From: a virus | Length of the DNA: 64,000 nt | IMG/VR virus record: IMGVR_UViG_3300023274_000046 | Strand: one strand, 5' to 3' | Shown here: positions 44,053 to 61,351 of the stretch, piece after piece | Numbering within the stretch: position 1 is the stretch's first letter | How the letters are laid out: each line of letters starts with the position of its first letter | Made by a program: the position numbers and the translations under genes | The notes under the pieces: model-generated | What the model saw: the letters and a program-made list of their open reading frames with translations, nothing else | Told to the model about the DNA's origin: nothing | Database searches by the model: none

Positions 44053-44115
44053 ACGGTTCGGGTTGGGGAACTAGCCCGGGAATAATAAAAATAAACGATA
44101 CACCCAAAAAAAAAA
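44053..44115 (+). repeat. 63-bp direct repeat, copy 1 (rns 3' end)
   Basis: acggttcgggttggggaactagcccgggaataataaaaataaacgatacacccaaaaaaaaaa is identical at 45783-45845. Confidence 0.95.
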
Positions 44116-44726
44116 TAAACCAAAAATTAAAAAAAATGCAAAAAAAAAGCCGGTGCAAGGAGCATAAATATTTCATATATTTATATGGTTCGAATCCATA
44201 AACAGGATAATGGGTAGTTTAAAGATATTATTTTACAATAATAATAATTTAGGATTGTTTGAATTTAAGGTTTATATCTTGGCTTATGATATTTATATTT
44301 TAGGTGTGCGCCGTGTAGAGGCATTGTTGTCGAGGCAAATAATTGCTTATCATTACTCGAACATGATAGTAGCAACAGAGTTAGGTCGAAGGGAAAGCCT
44401 GGAACTGAACATAGCATCTCTGTTAAAGCGGTCACAGTCAATAACCCGAATAATTGATAATAGGATTCGCGAGCTATACACTCTATGGTTAAAGTTATAC
44501 TATTTGAAGTGAATTGTCCATTGGCCTCAAATATAGGGCACTCTCATTACGGGTAAGGGAGAGTTCAGACGGAAAGATGGATGAACCTAAGCCATTTTTC
44601 TCGAGTCGATCTGACAAGATACGCAATAAGCGCATTGAAGGACGAGAAATCGCAACCTAAGGAGTGAAGACGGACAACAAATCGCAACCACGGGATTGCC
44701 GATAGATTGATTATGAAGAGCCAAGG

Positions 44727-45734
44727 TTGCATGTGAATAGCCAAGGTTACATGCGAAGAGTCAAATCAGAGGGCTTATTAAGGATCGACCCGTCTCTCGT
44801 AGGACTTTTTTTTTTCACCGCTACGCGCTACGCGCTACGCGCTACGCCTCTTTCGACCAATATAACAACACGAATCTTACTCCTACACCTGTTTACACTA
44901 CATCAGCCAATCTCGTTCTACATACCAGCATTTTGTTCCGCTAACCTTACCATTCATCTTGCACCATACCTATTTCGAACTTCAATACCCTGTCCAGCCA
45001 TGTCTTCTGTAAAATACACACACAAATACACCAACCAAAGCGTTACCGGTTCTCCTCTGATGGATGGTCGACCTCTTGTCATCCCTCGAGCGGATTCACC
45101 ATTTGGCGAAGACTTTACCTATTCAATTGAAAATCAGATTCTTGACTCATTGGAGGAGGAAACAGGTAAAGTGTTATTGAAGACCCTTTCACCGAAAACG
45201 GTTGTCGGGTATCCAGCCAACGAAATAAACCCGTGCGTCAGGGGGGATCACAACTCTCCTATCATTAAAAAAGAAGATGAGTGCATACCGTTGATTTCAT
45301 CTCGGCCACATTCACCTTCACAAACTACCCAACCGGAAAAATCGACTCCCACCAAAAGAACATCACCTCTAAAAAGATCAGGTCGTATTGCTAAAAGACG
45401 GTCCCCTACCACGACTAAGAGTTCTCTTATCAAATGGTATAGCGAGGAAGGGTATTTTCAAGTCGGATCGCGAAGAATTTCTAAAGATAAGGCTACCGAA
45501 TTTATCCTACGGGGAATCGAGGATGATAGAAGGGAAAAATTGAAAAAGAAGATTTCAGAAGCGAAGGAATTATTTACTATGGTTAAACGAGAATGTATAA
45601 AGGTTTTTCAAGAAGACGTCGATGATCTGGGGGTTAATTGGTACGATGATAAGGATATTCACCAAGAGTTGTTCGATGCAGGTATAACGATTACGCCGTA
45701 TATGCGTAATATTATATTCTATATAAAACAGTAG
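44727..45734 (+). CDS. Hypothetical protein of apparently foreign origin (335 aa; alternative start at Met 45000)
   Basis: Open in the standard code, Trp encoded by TGG, visibly GC-richer than the flanks, Ser/Pro/Thr- and basic-rich. Confidence 0.6.
   Translation: MHVNSQGYMRRVKSEGLLRIDPSLVGLFFFTATRYALRATPLSTNITTRILLLHLFTLHQPISFYIPAFCSANLTIHLAPYLFRTSIPCPAMSSVKYTHKYTNQSVTGSPLMDGRPLVIPRADSPFGEDFTYSIENQILDSLEEETGKVLLKTLSPKTVVGYPANEINPCVRGDHNSPIIKKEDECIPLISSRPHSPSQTTQPEKSTPTKRTSPLKRSGRIAKRRSPTTTKSSLIKWYSEEGYFQVGSRRISKDKATEFILRGIEDDRREKLKKKISEAKELFTMVKRECIKVFQEDVDDLGVNWYDDKDIHQELFDAGITITPYMRNIIFYIKQ
44820..44847. repeat. (GCTACGC)4 tandem repeat
   Basis: Read directly. Confidence 0.9.
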
Positions 45735-45782
45735 TATATCAGCCATTCGACCTTCCTTATCTATAAAACGTTTCTTTTTCTA

Positions 45783-45845
45783 ACGGTTCGGGTTGGGGAA
45801 CTAGCCCGGGAATAATAAAAATAAACGATACACCCAAAAAAAAAA
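45783..45845 (+). repeat. 63-bp direct repeat, copy 2 (duplicated rns 3' end)
   Basis: Identical to 44053-44115. Confidence 0.95.
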
Positions 45846-46046
45846 ATGCCAAAAAACAAATATAGCTTTTTTCCCTACGGCTACGCGGGAAAATTCAATA
45901 AAAGAAAGTAAGGAGTCCGAGTCCCTTTATTAAACACTGATGGACAAAGTATATAAATCACACTAGACAAATCTAAGCAGAATAATTTTACGGTATTGTA
46001 TTATATCTGAATAATACAAAGGAAGTTCAAATCTTTCTATTCTGGA

Positions 46047-47360
46047 ATGCCATACAACTCATTAATATTATTAATTTTATCTAATTCAATTACATCAAGA
46101 CGAGACAAATCAATCCTGTTCACAGCAACAGTTATATTTATAATTATCCTTTCAGTATTTATAGCCTATAATAATTTACATATTTTATTTTTAGTATTAT
46201 CTTTGGAAAATGGGTTAGGATTAACCCATATTGCTGCTACAATGAACTCGTTCCCTGTTAGGGATTTAAACACATTATTAACTTTACTTCTAAAAAGGGT
46301 TATAGTTGCTGTAAGGCAAGGGTACGATAAGGGTAATGGGATAAGCTATTCATTAAAAGTTAAAGCAAAATCTGATGAAAAGATCTCTACTATATTATCA
46401 AGTATGCCTTCAACATTCAACTATAACACTAAAAGAAAGTTTAATACTTTATCTAAAGTAAACTCTATTAAAAAATTAGACCCCTTCTTTATTACAGGTT
46501 TAGCGGATGCAGAGTCTAGTTTTATGATATTTATTCGTAAAAATACTAAGATTAAAGTTGGTTGAGTAGTGGAGGCTAGATTTGCAATTAGTTTTCATAA
46601 AAAAGACTTACCACTTTTAGAGTTAATTCAGTATACTTTTGACGGAGTGGGTTCTATAGTACGTCATTCAAAAGATAGTTATAGTTTATGCGTTAGCTCT
46701 CCAAAGGATTTAATTCATACTATTATCCCACATTTTGACAAGTACCCTTTAATTACAAAAAAAAGATCTGATTATGAGCTATTTAAACGTGTAGTAGAAC
46801 TTATGAACCAGAAAGCCCATTTAACCGTTGAGGGTTTACAACAAATTATAAGTATTAAAGCTGTTCTAAATAAAGGTTTATCAGATGAATTAAACCTTTC
46901 ATTTCCTGACGTTAAATTTACTACACGTCCTCTATTTCCAGTGAGTAAAATACAAAATAGTAACTGAGTATCCGGATTTGTCGAAGGTGAAGGTAACTTT
47001 ATGATTATGCTTAAAAAAAATCCATCTCATAAATCTGGTATACAGGTTGCATTGAGATTTAAAGTGACTCAACATAACCGTGACGTTGAGTTTATTAAAA
47101 GTTTTGTAGATTTTTTTGGTTGTGGTAATTGCTATATTGGTGGAGATTGCGTAGATTTCGTTGTTACAAAGTTTTCTGATATTACTGATATAATCTTACC
47201 CTTTTTTAGTAAATACCCTTTACATGGCTGTAAAAGATTAGATTTTCTTGATTTCTTACGAGTTGTTGAGATTATGCAAAGTAAAGCTCATATAACTGGG
47301 GAGGGACTAGAACTAATTCGTACAATAAAATCCGGAATGAACAGAGGAAGATGTGTTTAA
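46047..47360 (+). CDS. Free-standing LAGLIDADG endonuclease with a Nad2-like N-terminus (437 aa)
   Basis: LSNSITSRRDKSILF...AYNNLHILFL, then ITGLADAES and VSGFVEGEG; continuous across TGA. Confidence 0.85.
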
Positions 47361-47404
47361 TTTCTCACTATAGCTGTTTAGAGTAAATTAAACAAAAAAA
47401 ACAA

Positions 47405-47489
47405 AGGAGAGTTCCTTCATCGGTAAGAAGGGTTGAGCTGTAAACTCAATAGTAATATACTTTTAAGAGTTCGAATCTCTTGTCTCCTA
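47405..47489 (+). tRNA. trnY: tRNA-Tyr(GTA)
   Basis: Anticodon arm ttgag ctgtaaa ctcaa; long variable arm. Confidence 0.92.
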
Positions 47490-47568
47490 GATTTTTTTAT
47501 AATATAAACAATTAAATAATGATGTATGATTATGATTACTGTATATATTTATGTTATATTCTTTAATA

Positions 47569-47639
47569 GCCCTTATAGCTCAATGGTAGAGCGGAATACT
47601 GTTAATATTATGATAAATGTTCAATTCATTTTAAGGGCT
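47569..47639 (+). tRNA. trnN: tRNA-Asn(GTT)
   Basis: Acceptor gccctta/taagggc; loop ctgttaa. Confidence 0.92.
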
Positions 47640-47953
47640 TGCACAGATATACCTAATAGAGGGCTGTTGTATCCTTACAATATTGGAAGTTTTAAGTATA
47701 TTTTGCTATATGCTTTAAGCACTTTTTTTTCAAACATTTTATTATTTATTTAATTATTTAAAACAATCGCGTTTGCGACACCTTTGTGACGCCTTTGCGT
47801 TTGTGACAATTTATAATCCAGGCATATCTATTATAGAATAATAAGTCTAAATTATTTATTAAAAAATGTATCTTAGTACAGTTATAGTACTATTACCTAA
47901 TGTAATTGATGTATAATAATAACTGTTATGAAAGTGGTAAATAACAATTTTAC

Positions 47954-50900
47954 ATGTTGTATATTGTGAATGAAATGACATTTAGTGGATATAATGTATA
48001 TAGTTTAAACTTATTATATATTATTGCTATATTATTAGGTATACTAGTTATTATTAGCAAAAACCCTATTGATATATTATTTGGGGTAAACTATCAAATT
48101 CCGGGGACACCCTAAAGCTTATGATACCAAGCTGTAGTTGAAAGACTATTAGTGGATGAATTAATCACTCATGTATGGTAAAAAGTCATAAGATGATCCT
48201 TTATATTAGCAAAGGAGAAATAGGCAATCGCGGATCTAAGTCAGTAACATAATAATTACTGTAAAAGAGCAACGATTAGATGGTAGTTAGTAGTGGTATT
48301 TAAGTAAATAATATTACTACTTAAGGTATAATCTACAAATTAAAAAAAAATATGTGATTGTAAATAATTTCAATCTAAACTTACTTACATTTTATTCTGA
48401 TGTAGACTCAGGAGGTGTCTCCTACTCTAATCATAAATATATTGTATTACAATCCCGTGTACCCCGACCTCACCAATTAAATGATCTCTTGATAAGGTCA
48501 TATCATACTAAATCTTTAAGTAGCTTACGTACACCCTTAGAGTTAAATCCTTGATTTATAACTGGATTTACTGATGGGGAAGGTTCATTCTCATTAAGTG
48601 TTAGAGATATAGATAAGTATACTAAAAAAGGAAAAGTACTCTATGTATTTTCAATAATATTACATAAGAAAGACGAGGGTATATTAAGAAGTATCTCATC
48701 CGCAGTTATTACGCTATTGCTTGGTTATTACCGTAAATTTAAAGATAGATGTAGTTTTGATTTAGAATGAGCTTTACATAACCCACCTAAACCATACGCA
48801 TTTACTCACTTACCTTTACAGAGTAAACTTCAACATCCACATGCGGGTTATTTTTGATGAATGATGCACAGACGTAATGTGCATGCACACGAATCTAACG
48901 CACCTACTGAGGAACATATTCAGAGGTACTATCAGAAATACATTGAACCATTGACCCCCGAACAACAAAATAATTTTGATAGAAAATTAATACGAATAGA
49001 TGATAAATTTTTGGAGAAAATACGAGGTAATGGAATGCAGCAGTGTCCGAATCATGGTATCAAAGATGTTCAAGGTAGTAATTGTAAAGGAACATATATT
49101 TTTGACCAGTATGAGTTAAATCCTCTTATGAATATTATGCATAATGACGAAATTCAAAGCATACTCTTTGTAGTAAACGGAGAGTGGGTTATTTGCTTAA
49201 GATACCTAATTATGTATTTTATGATTAAAAATGGATATAATTTTAAAACTATATGATCATTTATAAGTTCGAATATTATTTATGTTATAAAAATTCTTGC
49301 GAATAACGTTAGTAGTATAATTTTTCTCTATTTAGCTATTATATCCAGTATGGTATTTTTATTAATTAGTGGTAACTATTTAGATGCTAGCTTTGTTAGT
49401 TATGACGTACTTAAAGCTTGAGAACTTTACTTCCAAAATAGTGCTAGTCCACCTAATAATATTTTTTCAGGTTATAGAAATTATTTACAATATTCAACTA
49501 ATTATCCTCTAATACTATCTTCCAACCCCGGGGGGGTTAGAAGAAATAGATCTTTTTCTACCTCTATTCTCCCCTATAACTCCGTTACAAGGGGAAGCTT
49601 ATTAAATCTTAAAGAAATACCTCGTAGGAAGTTTTATTGCTCAACTTCATTAAATAGGGATTTACTTAGTGATGAAGATTTTTACGAATGGTTACGTGGT
49701 TTGATAGATGGTGAAGGTTGTTTTTATATAAGAAAAAACTTGATCCGAGAGAATTCTCCATTCACATTTTTATTCTTAATTAATTTACACATTGATGATA
49801 AGGCTGCGCTTGACTATATTCAAATGAGGTTGAATATCGGTAAGGTCGATGTTATCAAAGATGGAAAAATGAGTAGTTTATCAGTTGTGAAAAAAACAGA
49901 GATAAAAGTACTAATTGACATTTTAAGTAAAGTTCCTTTGAATACAACTAAAAGGTTAAATTTCGAAGACTGAAAGCAAGCTTATGAGCTTTATTTCGGT
50001 GTAGATAAAATAAGTGATAGAGGAAAAACTATCCTGGAAAAAATAGATGAGATTAAGAAAGGTATGAACACAAGAAGACAATATGAAACACATAAATTTG
50101 AGTTTCATATCACGAAATATTGATTGTTAGGGTTTATAGAAGGAGAAGGTTCATTCTCTATATCGAAAGAACGACTTCAACAGATATTTTTCCTGGGGCA
50201 AGTGTCTAGCGAGAGACCTTTATTAGAAAAAATCACAGAATATTTAGAATATTATAGTGAGGGTTCTATCTCTTATTCCACTAACAATAAGTCCATATTC
50301 GCTATCTATGATAAAACTGAGGATGCTTTACGTAACCGTAAGCCCTTTTCTAGTTTACATTGCGCTAATCAAGAATATTTACTTAAGGTGCTAGTGCCGC
50401 TATTAGATTCATTAACCTGACAAACCAAAAAATTTATGGATTTTAAGGATTGATCAGCAATATTGGAGATAAAAGCTGCCGGTCTTCATCTTAGTTCCCA
50501 AGGTAAAAAAGTGATCCAAAAAGTAATTGCGCAGATGAACAATTACCGTTTGTCAACTAATCCTGATAAAACAAACATAGATAGAAACTTATTGTATTCT
50601 GAAATTGCAGATTTATTAGATCAACCTTCTATTGAAAGAGTAGCCAAAAGACCGGTTAATCTAATAAATGAAAAAGGTGAATTGTTTAAGTCTTTTCCAT
50701 CAATATACGGCTGTGCCAAATTTCTGGGTATAAGTAAATATAAGATTAATACAGCTATAAAACTAAATAAAGCGCTGATTTATGACGAAAAAGTATATTT
50801 TGTGCGTGAGGACTAGGAGTAGGTAAAATATATACACATGGAAAACAAGGAGTACAATTCCGCGTTGAATCTAAAAAAGAGTTATGTATTTTAATAGAAC

Positions 50901-53900: not shown

Positions 53901-56900
53901 ACAGGTATCTCGAGATAAACCTTTATTAGAAAAAATTGTTGAGTTTTTAAAATCTCATAGTGGAAATTTATATACTAAAGAGTCTTTTTTAACTATATAT
54001 GATAAAGCTAAAGAGAATAATATAAATCAAAATCCTTATTCAGAAATCCGAAGTTCTAGTTTATATTCTTTACGTAAAGTGCTTGTACCTTTATTAAGCG
54101 ATTTAAATTGACGTTCAAAAAAATATAAAGATTTTAAAGATTGAACTTTAGTTTTAGATTTAAAAGCTGCAGGTCTTCATACTGCATCTGAGGGTAAAGA
54201 ACTTATTTTAAAGATATACTCTCAAATGAATAATAACCGTCTATCCACTAAAAAATCAGATGTGAATGTAGATGTAGATAAATTACATTATGAAATTAAA
54301 CTTTTGTTAGCTAAATCTACTGACCACACAAGTAAAGCCAATTCTGTTAATCTTCATTTAGAAAACGGAGAACTGGTAATGTCTTTCCCATCAATATATA
54401 GTTGTGCCAAATTTTTAGGTGTTAATAAGTATAGAGTTTCTCAAAGTTTAACTTTGAATAAACCGTTTAATGTAGATAATAAGGTTTACTATGTGCGTAA
54501 CGCATAAATTTACAATATAAGTTACAATAACTTATCTGGTACACAATTAAGAAGGTTGAGCTAAGTTGTTTATTTATATGTTACCATAGGTGCGGTAAAA
54601 AAACGTATGGTTAGATCATTTAGATCTAATTTTGCAGCGTGGGTTAGAATCCCACTCTACAAGGTACTTTTAATTATAAACAATTTTTTTTTTAAAATAA
54701 TGTTGTACAAACTTCCTTCTTTATTTAAGTTTAAAAGGGAAGCACCGTCAGCTTTCGCTTTATTTTTTTCGACGTTATTTCGAATATTCGCAATAAATAG
54801 AAATAAATTAGCGCAAGAGGAATCATATTTTTCTCAAAAGTCGTCCTGCAGCAACCACGACGAAGAATTTATTAAATGATTTGTAGGGTTCTCAGATGCA
54901 GAGTCTAATTTCACTATAGTCTTATATAAAGATAAAACTGGTAAAATTATATCTTTTACTTTCAGATTTTTGATAGAGTTACACGTTGATGACATAGATG
55001 CTTTAAAATTAATAAAAAATAAATTAAATCTAGGAAATGATATAGTAGTGTATGGTAATAGTTGTAAATTTACGGTAACACATCGAAAAGATATTTATAA
55101 ATTAATAGCTATATTTGATAAATATAACCTAAATACTACTAAGTACCTTGATTATTTAGATTTTAAGAAAGCTTTTAATTTATATCTGGGAAGAGATAAG
55201 ACAATTAAAGAGAAACAAAATTTAATAGATCAAATACTAGAATTAAAAAATAGAATGAACAAGTCTCGTGTTAATTTTAGTTTACCTGCAGATCATCAAA
55301 TAGTAATATCTGGTCCTTGATTACTAGGGTTTATTGAGGGAGAAGGTTCATTTTATTTAGATAGAACTGAATTTAGACCTGTTTTTTCAATTATACAAAC
55401 TGAAATACAGCTACCTGTAATGGAAAAAATTAAATAATTTTTAGAGAGTAATTTAGGGTTTGATAAGTATTCTATGTTTAAATTAAAATGTTCATCCGCT
55501 ATATCTATTAAAAGAGGTAAAGCTCTAAATAATAGTAAATCGTTAGCAGTAGTTGTAATTAATAATACAAATATCTTAAATAATTATTTAATACCCTATT
55601 TAGAAAAAAAAAATATGCCGTTTATTACTAAAAAAGGTAAAGATTTTTATGATTTTAAAATTATATGCACTGCTGTGTATAATGGAACTTATAGAACAGA
55701 GGAAATAAAACTGTTAATCTTAAAATTGTCGTATTCTATGAATAACTTTAGATTAAGTACAAACTCAGATTTAAAAAAAGTTCCTAGTTTATTTAAGGAA
55801 AGTTTAGATAAAATCATAAAAGCAAAACCAACGATTAGACATCTTGATGATGGTCGTCAATTAGATATTGTCACTGGAAAAGCGGTGAATACACGTTGAA
55901 CTAATTGTATTTATGAAATAATTAAAGATTCAGGAGAAATGTTCTGAGCGTCTACTTTAAACGAGGCGGCTGAAATTTTAGGTGTAGATTTTAGAACAGT
56001 AAGAAGGCATTTAGAACAGGAAGACTTATACTCAAATGGATATTACGTCGAAATAAATGGCCATAAGGTTAGAAGAATACCAGTATTTTATCCTTAAGAA
56101 TCAACTCTTTTTTTTTGTGTGGGCAAAAGACTATTTGGTCCTGGAATTATAGTTAAGTCCTTAATAGGGAATAAATTTATTAAACTAGGAAGGTAGTTCT
56201 AGCAACACGGTAATGTAATGAGTACGCCGGAAAAAAAATCCATTGTAGGATGGTTATCCTGAACGCTGTTTTGGGATACGACGATGAGCCTTTAGTTACT
56301 TATGTAGCAAGGAAAAAAAAAATTAAAAAGAATTAAGAGCATAGGAACTGAAAGAAGGTTCAACTGTACAGTTCTATACTTGTAGAAAAAATTAGGTGAA
56401 TACGGTTAATAATATCTTAATTAAAGACCGTCGGCAGATGAAAATGTCGCAACAGACTGGATCACCGGGGCTAGGTTGCAATACCTGTTCTAATGTACAG
56501 TCGGATTCTAATACGAGTGTGAAATCGTAAGGAGGAAAGACAATACAGTAAGCTACACACAGTTGTATAATCATTCATACTATGATAGTTACTCCTAGAT
56601 ATGATAGTGTTAACTAGACGCTAGCTTAATCTTAATTAGAATTGATCTATATTATTTTTATTTATATTAATGCTAATAAATGTTAGGATATCGGAATTAT
56701 TAATTGATAGTATAAATAGTATACCTTTAGCCATATTATTAGGTAGTTTTTTTAATTATTTTGTTAATAATGTTTTACCTTACATGGTGATTACTAATAA
56801 TTTACTTTATCATTTTAGCATAAAAAAAAAATTAGCCAATGTAACATCTGTATCATGAGATGGATATTTAGCAGAAACTTCTCATATAACAAGTATAGGA

Positions 56901-57005
56901 AATATCATCTATGGAAATTATTCTATATGATTAATACTTACATCCATTATATTATTATTAGCCATGACTGGGTGTATTATAATTACTTTAAAAGAAAAAA
57001 AGTAA
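47954..57005 (+). CDS. nad6: NADH dehydrogenase subunit 6. Exons 47954-48067, 51683-51795, 56645-57005 (588 nt)
   Basis: VIISKNP-IVSVLFLIGLF...LLVYIGAV-SILFLFILMLINV...NYSIWLILTSIILLLAMTGCIII. Confidence 0.93.
48068..51682 (+). mobile_element. Group I intron 1 of nad6 (IC2-like); resident LAGLIDADG split by a ~2.1 kb insertion
   Basis: Core at ~48085-48330; LAGLIDADG halves at ~48500-48695 (LHKKDEGILRSI) and ~50812-51582 (LGVGKIY). Confidence 0.88.
48312..50816 (+). CDS. Chimeric ORF (~835 codons; first ATG at 48861): LAGLIDADG N-half, Cox1-C-terminus-like, cargo, TM, Cox2-N-terminus-like, complete second LAGLIDADG
   Basis: Read by hand in code 4; no TAA/TAG until 50814. Confidence 0.78.
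51796..56644 (+). mobile_element. Group I intron 2 of nad6 (ID-like core at the 3' end) with three LAGLIDADG units
   Basis: Core gcaacagactggatca / aatgtacagtcgg at ~56450-56505. Unit A (51796-~52227 plus ~53500-54507) is split by unit B (~52227-53413). Unit C (54597-56097) has an internal TAA at 55435. Confidence 0.85.
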
Positions 57006-58082
57006 ATAATTCTGAATTTAATGCGCGTAAAGGGCTAGTTAACCCCAGCTCTAAATATCTTTTCAAGCCTAAATTTTATATATTAAGTAGTCGGTCTTTT
57101 AGTACCGTTAATAGTTCTCTTAAAACAGATGTTTGTACTCAAAATAATACTATTGCATTGAACCTTTTACCGGGTTGGGTTACAGGATTTTCAGATGGTG
57201 AATGTTCTTTTTCTGTTAATATTGTTAAAAACAGTCAATATAAAACAGGTTGAAGTATAATACCTATTTTCTGTATTGAATTGCATAAAAGAGATTTAGA
57301 GACTCTTTTAAGAATACAGATGTTTTTTGGGGGTATAGGAAGGATTAATCACCTTAAAGAAAAAGGTCATGTCGTCTATTCAATAACTTCTGTTAAAGAC
57401 TTACATAACGTGATCATACCTCATTTTACGAAGTACCCTCTTTTAACTATAAAAAGACTTACTTTTATACTTTTTAAAGATATAATTGAATTACTTGTAA
57501 ACAAAGAACATTTGAATTATAACGGCTTACTAAAAATTATGGCTATTAGAACTCAAATAAATAAAGGTGTTTCTGATGAACTACTAAGCTCTTTTAATCA
57601 ATTTTCTATGCAAATTAGTGGTAAACCTATTGTTACTATTCCAAAACCATTATTGGACCCGTTAAGTTTAAAACATTTAACTAAGGATTGATTAGTAGGT
57701 TTTACTGATGCGTAAGGTTGCTTTTTTGTTCACTATCGTGTTAATAGTAATAAAACAGGTCATTCAACAGGATTGGGCTTTACTATTACTCAGCATTCTA
57801 GAGATTCTTTACTTTTTCAGCTTATAAAATAATTTTTCGGTGTTGGTAATACTATAACGGAAGCAAATAAAGAGGTAATTAGATATAGAACGGATAATTT
57901 TTCTAATATTTATGAAAATATTATACCTTTTTATAGAAATGCACTACAAAGTAGCAAAAATTTGAATTATTTAGATTTTTGTGAAGCTTCTGAAATAATC
58001 CAAAGTAAATCTCATTTAACTGAGCAAGGCCTGGAAAGAATTAAATCTATTAAACTCCGTATGAATTCTAAACGGGTTTAGT
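57006..58082 (+). pseudogene. Free-standing LAGLIDADG directly after nad6, with in-frame stops
   Basis: WVTGFSDGEC and WLVGFTDA*G motifs. Confidence 0.8.
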
Positions 58083-58379
58083 ATAAAGTATGAAATTAAA
58101 TCGAAAACGATATCATTATTAGCAGTAAAAAAGGATTATTGGTTTAGGATAAGGTAATACAAAATAACCCCGAGGTTCTATTAAAGATTCCCGTGTTAAA
58201 TTTTGTATAAGCCAAACTGTAATAGTCGGTCATTTTTAAATAAGTTCATTATAAAATATTTTTTGGTTTTCCCCTTGTTCTATTCTTACTGTCGAATAGG
58301 TAGTATTGTAATCACTCTAAAAGAAAAAAAGTAATTACTTTTAACGAATCTTCGTGTCAAATTAGTGGTGATATTCCTT

Positions 58380-58775
58380 TAAGAGTTAAAGCAAAATCTG
58401 ACGAAAAAACGTTTTCTGGTGGCAGTATATCTCAGACATACAACTATAATTCTAAAAGAAAGTTTAGCACTTCAGCTACATTTAAAGTACCTAAAGGATT
58501 AGATCCCTGATTTATCACTGGAATCGTGGACGCTGAGTCTACATTTACAATAGCTATCCGTCAACATTCTAAATGTAAAATGGGTTGATCTGTTGAGCCC
58601 AGCTTTGCTATTGGTTTAAATAAAAAAGACTTACCTTTACTGGTGTCAATTAAATCTACTTTTGGGGGAATAGGTTCTATAATGCGCCATTCAGAAGATT
58701 GCTCTGTTTGACGTGTTAGCTCTCTAAAAGATTTAATTAACACAGTCATTCCACATTTTGACAAGTTTACTTTTG
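58380..58775 (+). pseudogene. Truncated LAGLIDADG paralogous to 46047-47360
   Basis: Shared gttaaagcaaaatctga...aaaagaaagttta; FITGIVDAES motif; ends at IPHFDK. Confidence 0.75.
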
Positions 58776-59033
58776 TAATATGTAAAAATAAGTATTAAGT
58801 CATATATATTAAATATTTAAATCCAATTTTGCAATGTATAAAATTAAAAATTTATTTTGTATATATAACTTAATCTGTCTCATTGCGAAGGATTTACCAT
58901 TAATCAACCTCTCATTGCGTTGGAGAGATCCCTTGTTTATATGAATAAGGAATAAAGGAGAAGATACCTCGTGGAGGGCAACGGAGTAACGCTCAGACAT
59001 GCCCATAAGCTAGAGATTAAAGCCTAAAAAAAA

Positions 59034-59206: not shown

Positions 59207-59297
59207 TAAAAAAATTATAAACGGCTATAGGAGAAACTACTTTTAATAGGGGCTCCGTATTATTGGTAGATAGATGTGCAACTCATCTACGGGGTAT

Positions 59298-59504
59298 ATG
59301 ACTAAACTATTACTATTATCATTGAAATTATCTAATGAAATACTATTAAGACGAGACAAATCCATTTTGAAGACAATAATAACAATATCTAACGAATTAT
59401 CTAATTCAACATTAATAAGATGAGAAAAATCCCTTTGGAAGACAAGAATAAATATACCTAAAAAATTATCTTTTTTAGATATTATTCCTGAAGACAAAAA
59501 ATAG
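59298..59504 (+). pseudogene. nad2 N-terminal fragment with an internally duplicated LSN...RRDKS motif
   Basis: MTKLLLLSLKLSNEILLRRDKSIL...ELSNSTLIRWEKSL. Confidence 0.65.
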
Positions 59505-59710
59505 AATAAAACTAAAAAAATAAAACAAAATAAAAAAACAAATCTAAAGGGCTAGTGTAGTTTGAGATTAAGTTAGGGGTAGCTAGCTTATTATGGGGGG
59601 TGCAAATACCCTGGTCCTTAAGAATAAAAAAAAAATAAATCCTGAAAAGTAGATACCTAATTAGATTTATCTTTTTAGTTTATAGATGTGCAACTCATCT
59701 ACAGGGTATC

Positions 59711-61351
59711 ATGAAAATAATCAAACTAACACTAATATCATTATTATCTAATTCAATAACACTAAGACGAGACAAATCCATTTTTTGTAATAGGATAACT
59801 ATTTCGCCCGCCGTCGGGGAGATTTTAGTTATTTCTATTTTTCTTTTAGCCAACTATTACATAGCTTTTATTTCGGATCTTTACACAGATAAGGGGCCCC
59901 CCTTACCAGCATGTATTACTAATGATTTTCAAAGGCAATTTTATAGAATAACAGATTGTTATTTATTTTCTACTTTTGTTCCTTTTTCAGAACAGTGATG
60001 TAAAGAGAAGAAAGTTGAACTTTATAAAAAAGGGTTTCCAGCTGTTTTCGAGGACATGTCACAAATTAAAAAATATGATTATTTTGCTATTACTAATTTT
60101 ACGATAAACCCTTTATCTTATTATTCTCTTAAAAACATCCCTGGGATTTACATGATTACCAACAAGATTACTAAAAAGATATATATTGGAATGTCTACTA
60201 ATCTTAAAGATAGATTTTATAATTATCTGGATGAAAAGAGATTAAACAGAGATAGATCTTCCAGAATTAATAAAGCGTTACTTAAATTTGGTTTCGATAA
60301 GTTTTCTATTTCTATTTTAGAGTTCACTCATATTGAACAAGGGACCACGGTTAAGATTTCTTATTTAAGAGAAGACTTTTTCATTAAAGTTTTTAAACCT
60401 CAATATAATATTAAAAGATCTTCCTATAATTTTAATCTTGAAATAAAGGGAAATAATAAAGTTATTATGAAATTAGATATACCTCTAAAAATTAAAAATT
60501 TACTTGATAAGTGCTTAGATATTATTCATGAGCTATTCTCTGTAGCATATAAAAAATATGCTTACAATTTATTTAACTATCTATTAAATAGACTAAAAGA
60601 ATATAAACTATTCTACCTAATTGTTATCTTTTTTTATTCTATTATCCAAAATATCGAAAAAATACTATTATCTAATAATGGGTTATCTTTATTATTTATT
60701 ATTGGTTTATTTGTAGGTGATCAGTTTATATATTATAAAACCCTGTTGTTTTTATATTATATAACTTTTTTTAAAAATTATTTACAAGATAATAAGGAAA
60801 TATTAAAGAGTTACCCTAAAATTCAAGAATTTTTAATAAATACTTTTGAATTGTTACAGAAAGTTCTATTAGGAATAATACTAGGTATTGTAACTAATAC
60901 ACTAGTATCTTATTTAAAAAAGATTTGGGGATATATTCTTAAAATGTTTAGACAAAACAGGAATAATACTGAGAATAATAATTCTATACAAGAAGATAAC
61001 GGAAATAATAAGAATCCTAATCCAGACAATTCAGATCCTTTACTAAATAAAGAGGAAATAAGAAAGAAAAAAAACGTAGAAAGGAATAGAAGATATAAAA
61101 CAAAAAAAAAAATGAATCAAACCCCTGAGGAGAGGGAAGCTGACTCTAAAAAAAACGCTGAAAAGAATAGAATATATAGAGAAAAAAAAAAAATGAATGA
61201 AACTACTCAGGACAAAGAAAAAAAAACACGGGGGTATAGGGAAAGAAAGAGAAAACAAAGAGACATTATAAAACAGGTCATTAAAGATCATGAAGAAAGG
61301 CTAGCTAGAGAAAGGCTAGCTAGAGAAAGAGATAACGGAAATAATAACTAA
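59711..61351 (+). CDS. Chimeric ORF (546 aa): Nad2-like N-terminus, GIY-YIG module, membrane domain, Asn-rich and charged tail
   Basis: LLSNSITLRRDKSIF; PGIYMITNKITKKIYIGMS; YILKMFRQNRNN; the 59711 and 60056 track ORFs are in frame across TGA. Confidence 0.8.

Follow-up and report, generated by a model that had tools for sequence, protein, structure and literature searches.

The spacer between rns and trnY in the DNA analysed here, a 64-kb stretch that will be named hereafter the window, carries what we read, with a probability of roughly 0.7, as an I-OnuI-type endonuclease gene whose cassette, starting at about 46353, has become fused in frame to an ectopic nad2 5′ end, that is, to a tRNA-like element, a start codon and 71 codons. 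The ORF is a free-standing and, as far as its sequence allows this to be judged, apparently functional I-OnuI-type LAGLIDADG homing endonuclease gene, and the leader at its head is a diverged copy of the nad2 5′ end in an ectopic position and no part of a working nad2. The chimera as a whole is probably mobile. The features referred to below are:

45978..46044, plus strand: tRNA-like element, ending 2 nt before the ATG (fold and covariation)
46047..46259, plus strand: leader derived from nad2, codons 1-71; contains the start codon and, at about aa 19-53, a hydrophobic stretch
46260..46352, plus strand: linker, codons 72-102
46353..47360, plus strand: LAGLIDADG endonuclease cassette, codons 103-437 plus stop (Pfam, PDB sequence search)
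46404, plus strand: internal Met120, the cassette's own ATG
46470-47354, plus strand: enzyme core, aa 142-436, colinear with solved I-OnuI-family enzymes
46491-46517, plus strand: LAGLIDADG motif 1, catalytic E156 (GLADAES)
46968-46994, plus strand: LAGLIDADG motif 2, catalytic E315 (GFVEGEG)
47405..47489, plus strand: trnY(gta), found by ARAGORN, starting 44 nt past the ORF stop
58304..58798, plus strand: truncated cassette paralogue, first LAGLIDADG domain only, behind a second nad6 3′-end copy
59298..60007, plus strand: other nad2-start copies, namely the 68-codon ORF 59298-59504 and the leader of a GIY-YIG ORF from 59711

The window is AT-rich fungal mitochondrial DNA (~30% G+C) read with code 4, and the host DNA is a Pleosporales-type mitochondrial genome. 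Genes lie on the minus strand in positions 1-35.5 kb, and from 36.5 kb the plus strand carries two copies of trnR, a much-interrupted rns, trnY, trnN, a split nad6, trnV and trnK, interspersed with many LAGLIDADG, GIY-YIG and reverse-transcriptase ORFs. The endonuclease ORF is intergenic and occupies the same place in five related loci (L003-L007), in which the order rns, ORF, trnY, trnN, nad6, trnV, trnK is found again. A first-pass annotation of this DNA had described a free-standing gene with a captured nad2 N-terminus, a description that this position in the rns-trnY spacer, 44 nt before trnY and syntenic in L003-L007, bears out. No Rfam model for a group I or group II intron was matched around the ORF (45500-48400, E up to 10); Rfam at gathering thresholds found no group I intron in the whole window either, so that the negative result near the ORF counts for little.

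Positions 46047-47360 form a single frame of 437 codons in code 4, from the ATG at 46047 to the stop at 47358-47360, and this frame is already open from 45957. Two TGA codons, at aa 173 and aa 307, both align with Trp in homologues, which confirms the use of code 4. The Pfam domain LAGLIDADG_1 (PF00961) was matched twice in the one chain (E 6.7e-51), and a PDB sequence search gave full-length matches of aa 142-436 to aHE15 (4.8e-90; residues 3-296) and I-PanMI (3.6e-83; residues 5-297), with further matches to I-SmaMI, I-PnoMI and I-OnuI. One acidic residue closes each motif, and both E156 and E315 align with the Glu of I-PanMI and aHE15. The ORF thus has in common with the I-OnuI family (I-PanMI, I-SmaMI, I-PnoMI, I-OnuI, I-LtrI) that aa 142-436 run colinear with solved enzymes over the whole length of the latter (E 1e-60 to 5e-90) and that there are two motifs, each with its Glu. 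It differs in that the solved enzymes are only ~295-305 aa long, whereas the window ORF has 141 additional N-terminal residues (71 of Nad2 and 70 of linker, counted up to the core). The ORF also supplies a natural member of the I-OnuI family that seems to be active and to have moved recently, and for which a target could be identified.

The left edge of the cassette is sharp (~46350-46363, around residues VKAKSDEK) and is common to the related locus L006 and to the paralogue within the window. Three unrelated contexts lie upstream of it: the nad2 leader followed by a 31-residue linker in the window, in L003 and in L004/L005; an ORF of a different kind in L006; and the second copy of the nad6 3′ end at the truncated paralogue. 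In L006 (2953-3759) the cassette is fused in frame to a hydrophobic ORF of 269 codons, for which neither a Pfam match nor a homologue in the window was found; the same cassette edge thus bears an N-terminal fusion for a second time, independently of the nad2 one. The truncated paralogue, previously placed at 58380-58775, is real: it is contained in the ORF 58304-58798 with one LAGLIDADG domain, and shows 57% protein identity to aa 103-236 and ~72% DNA identity. As for the linker (aa 72-102), it had no match elsewhere in the window or in the related loci except in orthologues, and its local alignment with Nad2 residues 61-135 scored no better than shuffled sequence. On visual inspection, some DNA words of the linker resemble a nad2 pseudogene present in the related locus L007, and the linker could be further diverged nad2, a resemblance that is not significant.

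The origin of the leader was traced by tblastn, in which three full-length Nad2 proteins of relatives matched 46047-46259 over residues 1-71 (E 1e-15 to 1e-17, 53-61% identity); with the Nad2 protein P0002 the values were E 1e-16 and 60% identity. Alignability of the N-terminus to Nad2 had been set beforehand as a test, and the alignment obtained covers residues 1-71. Similarity is unevenly distributed: identity to P0002 reaches 88% in the first 25 residues but drops to 46% in aa 26-71. Comparison of the first 71 residues with 11 Nad2 orthologues, which are at least 86% identical among themselves, gave 56-61% identity for the leader. The ORF has no match to PF00361 (Proton_antipo_M) in Pfam, and its tblastn similarity to Nad2 is limited to residues 1-71. 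The proposal that the first ~60 aa are Nad2-like and run in frame into an intact double-motif LAGLIDADG protein is hence upheld by tblastn and Pfam as regards the chimera, but the length has to be corrected to 71 residues. Downstream of the ORF, tblastn detected no continuation of nad2, and trnY follows 44 nt past the stop. That no remainder of nad2 lies nearby, as had been stated, is likewise correct for the window, from which the rest of the gene is absent and in which tblastn returned only weaker, short N-terminal copies near 59.3-60.0 kb.

These weaker copies comprise a match at 59741-60007 (aa 10-95, E 4e-5) and start motifs at 59331 and 59400. The ORF 59298-59504, located just past trnK and 68 codons long, contains two diverged nad2 start motifs in tandem. 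A repeat, 59260-59297 and 59672-59709, places hairpin-containing sequence ahead of both this ORF and the GIY-YIG ORF at 59711. Tandem arrangements were also seen in the related loci L004 (2103-2260) and L005 (3776-3935), where two nad2-start motifs precede the endonuclease in a single frame; the more upstream one is of the type seen at window position 59711, which points to recombination between leader families. In the same two loci the first 8 codons of the ORF have been swapped for another nad2-start variant, an exchange that demonstrates recombination among leader copies.

With no other nad2 body within the 64-kb window, the start of the ORF might be thought to be exon 1 of the real nad2, trans-spliced or separated from the remaining exons by a very long intron. 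We find this hardly credible. Among the 57 positions that are invariant across 11 Nad2 orthologues, 21 are changed in the leader, and the frame continues into the endonuclease without any intron signature. In addition, the first 8 codons are replaced in L004 and L005, and the leader is absent at the site in L006 and L007. The second nad2 fragment, at 59741 (aa 10-95), overlaps the leader, so the two pieces are not complementary exons. Furthermore, relatives encode an uninterrupted Nad2 of 570-593 aa, and elsewhere in the Pleosporales nad2 is paired with nad3 (PMC8956966, PMC5626475). A nad2 pseudogene was observed in L007 (5562-6200, minus strand), in which residues 15-114 are joined to residues 404-485. 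It is oriented head to head with trnR-rns, and cox3 follows it directly; nad3 is missing, although the order in Stemphylium is nad2-nad3-cox3.

The DNA captured together with the leader appears to extend beyond the reading frame, in that ~70 nt upstream of the ATG are also nad2-associated. This segment corresponds to the tRNA-like element, made up of a 7-bp acceptor-like stem (CAGAATA/TATTCTG), an 8-bp hairpin and a T-arm (GGAAG-TTCAAAT-CTTTC) with the loop TTCAAAT. Its minimum free energy is -14 kcal/mol (z -2.4), and 3 of 200 shuffled sequences fold equally well. Pairing is maintained in 94.7% of cells, as compared with 36-59% in slid controls, and three pairs show compensatory changes (three distinct sequences). 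Neither ARAGORN nor Rfam called 45978-46044 a tRNA. The same element is found upstream of the nad2 pseudogene in L007, suggesting that the captured piece was the nad2 5′ processing and start region, i.e. more than coding sequence. Some true Nad2 gene calls (P0006, P0154) have N-terminal extensions that resemble a translated T-arm, and may be just that. A decayed trnL(taa) was considered as a source of the element and rejected: relatives do have trnL(taa) between rns and the endonuclease, but the alignment revealed no specific similarity.

We propose the following scheme for the expression and movement of the chimera. The region would be transcribed together with rns and the tRNAs, and excision of the tRNA-like element upstream and of trnY downstream would leave an mRNA starting almost at the nad2 AUG, trnY being the likely 3′ processing point of the endonuclease transcript. 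Translation might then start at this AUG or at Met120 of the cassette. If translated, the leader would form a hydrophobic N-terminus that needs to be clipped, as in intron endonucleases that are fused to an exon. Cleavage by the enzyme would be directed at alleles of its site that lack the endonuclease, and repair would copy the whole block including the leader into them. An earlier suggestion that the gene borrows the translation signals of nad2 gains indirect support, since the captured piece includes the tRNA-like element 2 nt before the ATG that also precedes the L007 pseudogene. More generally, the arrangement shows how a free-standing homing endonuclease gene may be expressed without dedicated promoters, that is, from between two RNA-processing signals and by borrowing the start of a core gene.

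A metagenome scan yielded 10 related loci. Intact copies of the ORF are present in L001 and L002, whose strain is the same or very closely related, and in L003, with 96% protein identity. Both L004 and L005 have a frameshift in the second domain, the copy in L006 is decayed, that in L007 has shrunk to the C-terminal half, and L009 has fragments. This series, from the intact copies of L001-L003 to the decaying ones of L004-L007 and L009, looks like the usual life cycle of an endonuclease gene. A protein identical to the ORF product is encoded on 14 contigs, the longest of 247 kb. Between the window and L003, identity is 96-98% all the way from the tRNA-like element to trnY, including the spacer between the ORF and trnY (97.6%) and trnY itself (96.5%), which forms the right end of the highly conserved block. 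In the flanks, identity to L003 is ~55% for the upstream DNA, 57% for the trnY-trnN spacer and 75% for the downstream DNA. Silent-site divergence from L003 is 0.039 in the ORF and 0.46 in nad6 exon 2 (~12-fold), and from L004 it is 0.038 and 0.38, respectively. Silent divergence being so much lower in the ORF than in nad6, the block must be far younger than the divergence of the hosts. The comparison suggests that the block has spread recently by homing or introgression, with the leader moving along. The low silent divergence could also stem from introgression of a larger segment, and not from homing.

Whether the leader does anything for the endonuclease can be questioned, and because the cassette has its own conserved ATG, Met120, the leader is perhaps dispensable. 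Under this alternative translation of the endonuclease begins at Met120 and the leader is no more than an inert relic; nad2 fragment and linker alike would be recombination debris that happens to be still open and in frame. We regard it as rather unlikely, on balance of the following observations. Met120, located 40-50 nt in from the cassette edge, is kept in L003, L004 and L006 (it is absent from the paralogue), the paralogue and L006 have the cassette without a nad2 leader, and aa 26-71 of the leader have drifted to the low identity with Nad2 given above. Nor was selection on the leader alone significant, the substitutions being too few. Inert debris, however, does not readily account for two independent long in-frame upstream fusions (the nad2 leader and the 269 open codons in L006), for a leader and tRNA-like element that are as conserved relative to L003 as the enzyme (96-97%), or for a start codon placed 2 nt behind a conserved structured element. 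Moreover, the dN/dS ratio is 0.37 for the whole ORF (p 0.013) and 0.24 for codons 9-165 (p 0.020), with 26 substitutions in all, and an excess of silent changes was found in codons 1-165 (p 0.019, again from few substitutions, as the whole ORF holds only 26).

A separate question, and one compatible with the preferred reading of an endonuclease gene headed by an ectopic nad2 5′ end, is where the two parts became joined. The block could be the relic of an intron or insertion in nad2, if the endonuclease had homed into nad2 near codons 70-130 and had later been copied into the rns-trnY spacer together with its upstream exon flank. The nad2 fragments do break in a similar region (at codon 71 or somewhat later here, at ~95-100 in the 59711 copy and at 114 in the L007 pseudogene). 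The leader was also searched for exhaustively among 1.84 billion representative proteins with residues 1-141 as query, and 36 clusters were found to carry it. One of these, P0157, has Nad2 residues 6-127 (84% identity) fused to an in-frame LAGLIDADG ORF that begins after residue 127, which implies that nad2 is able to host such an intron. The endonuclease of P0157 is distant, though, at 35% identity overall to the window enzyme, and is farther from it than many 50-60% matches located in other genes. Also speaking against an origin within nad2 are the lack of an intron RNA signal in Rfam (which found no group I intron anywhere in the window), the mere 44 nt from stop to trnY, the location of all orthologous copies at the rns-trnY site and the lack of significant Nad2 similarity in the linker. 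We therefore hold a nad2 intron or insertion to be a distinctly unlikely source.

Homing into nad2 is possible. That the element homes into the nad2 5′ region, as had been inferred in the first-pass annotation, finds no support in the copies recovered, every one of which is at the rns-trnY site, nor in the nearest non-orthologues, which are 50-60% identical and, where they carry a host-exon Pfam domain, sit in assorted genes. Most of these closest endonucleases outside the orthologues have a LAGLIDADG domain alone; those with a host-exon Pfam domain are in nad1, atp6, cox1, cox3 or cob, or carry PF00361. The search of relatives for the ORF inside nad2 likewise turned up, as the sole nad2-intron LAGLIDADG protein, P0157.

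Six others of the 36 clusters, P0160, P0164, P0179, P0180, P0182 and P0186, are chimeras from other genomes with a nad2 N-terminus of 50-185 residues followed by non-Nad2 sequence. Five of the six tails are without a Pfam match, P0179 has a Nad3 fragment, and one chimera includes a Gln/Pro-rich region. A tentative generalization, to which we would give less than even odds, is that the nad2 5′ end, comprising a tRNA-like processing element, the start codon and the initial membrane helices, is a portable expression cassette that has been captured repeatedly by selfish or orphan mitochondrial ORFs across fungi, and that travels here with an endonuclease between species. Such a portable nad2 5′ end would parallel the chimeric ORFs of plant mitochondria. 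If it were true that the nad2 start is a preferred head of chimeric ORFs across fungi, this would single out a particular and testable property of how nad2 is processed at its 5′ end or translated.

Duplications of the nad2 5′ end that head mitochondrial ORFs have already been published, so the window gene adds a well-documented example and opens no new pattern; what deserves to be retained from it is the tRNA-like element that abuts the start codon, together with the evidence for joint travel of leader and endonuclease. A nad2 pseudogene has been reported in the 265-kb mitogenome of Exserohilum turcicum (PMC8956966), and a 558-nt duplication of the nad2 5′ region in Stemphylium lycopersici (PMC5626475). 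In Heterobasidion, the 5′ ends of nad2, cox3 and atp8 are found upstream of intergenic ORFs (PA_nad2-uORF9), and the authors propose a role in keeping expression (PMC10234125). What these cases share with the window is an ectopic nad2 5′ copy at the head of a non-core ORF. In contrast to them, the fragment in the window continues in frame into an intact homing endonuclease, and the block keeps a tRNA-like element by the start codon and looks recently exchanged between lineages.

Endonuclease genes associated with duplicated pieces of host genes form a second group of parallels. The mobile ORF at atp6 of Allomyces is a free-standing endonuclease gene with a partial duplication of the neighbouring host gene. 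In Pyronema and Rhizoctonia, free-standing endonuclease genes occur with truncated copies of atp6, cox1-3 and nad4 (PMC4866847), and GIY-YIG genes have been duplicated together with the atp9 N-terminus (PMC7487136). Common to this group and the window is a selfish ORF joined to a piece of a core gene, as is also the case for the nad6 and rns ends within the window. In the Pyronema, Rhizoctonia, atp9 and Allomyces type the fragment adjoins the intact host gene, whereas the nad2 piece in the window is ectopic, without a nad2 body within 64 kb.

A third parallel is provided by group I intron ORFs for endonucleases or maturases that are fused in frame to the upstream exon, as in the cox1 and cob introns of yeast (Guo et al. 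1995, as related in PMC7487136). They share with the window ORF a hydrophobic host N-terminus in frame with a LAGLIDADG protein, an arrangement that implies proteolytic release. They differ in that the window ORF has neither an intron nor a downstream exon, and its 'exon' is a diverged pseudogene fragment.

The ends of two other genes in the window are duplicated. The last ~38 nt of nad6, including the stop codon, are present at 56974-57011 and again at 58303-58340, 1.3 kb apart. The two copies flank the LAGLIDADG ORF 56819-57715, and the truncated paralogue comes after them; a duplicated nad6 3′ end of this kind is the classic scar of endonuclease insertion at the 3′ end of a gene. The 3′ end of rns is duplicated likewise, at 44053-44126 and 45783-45856.
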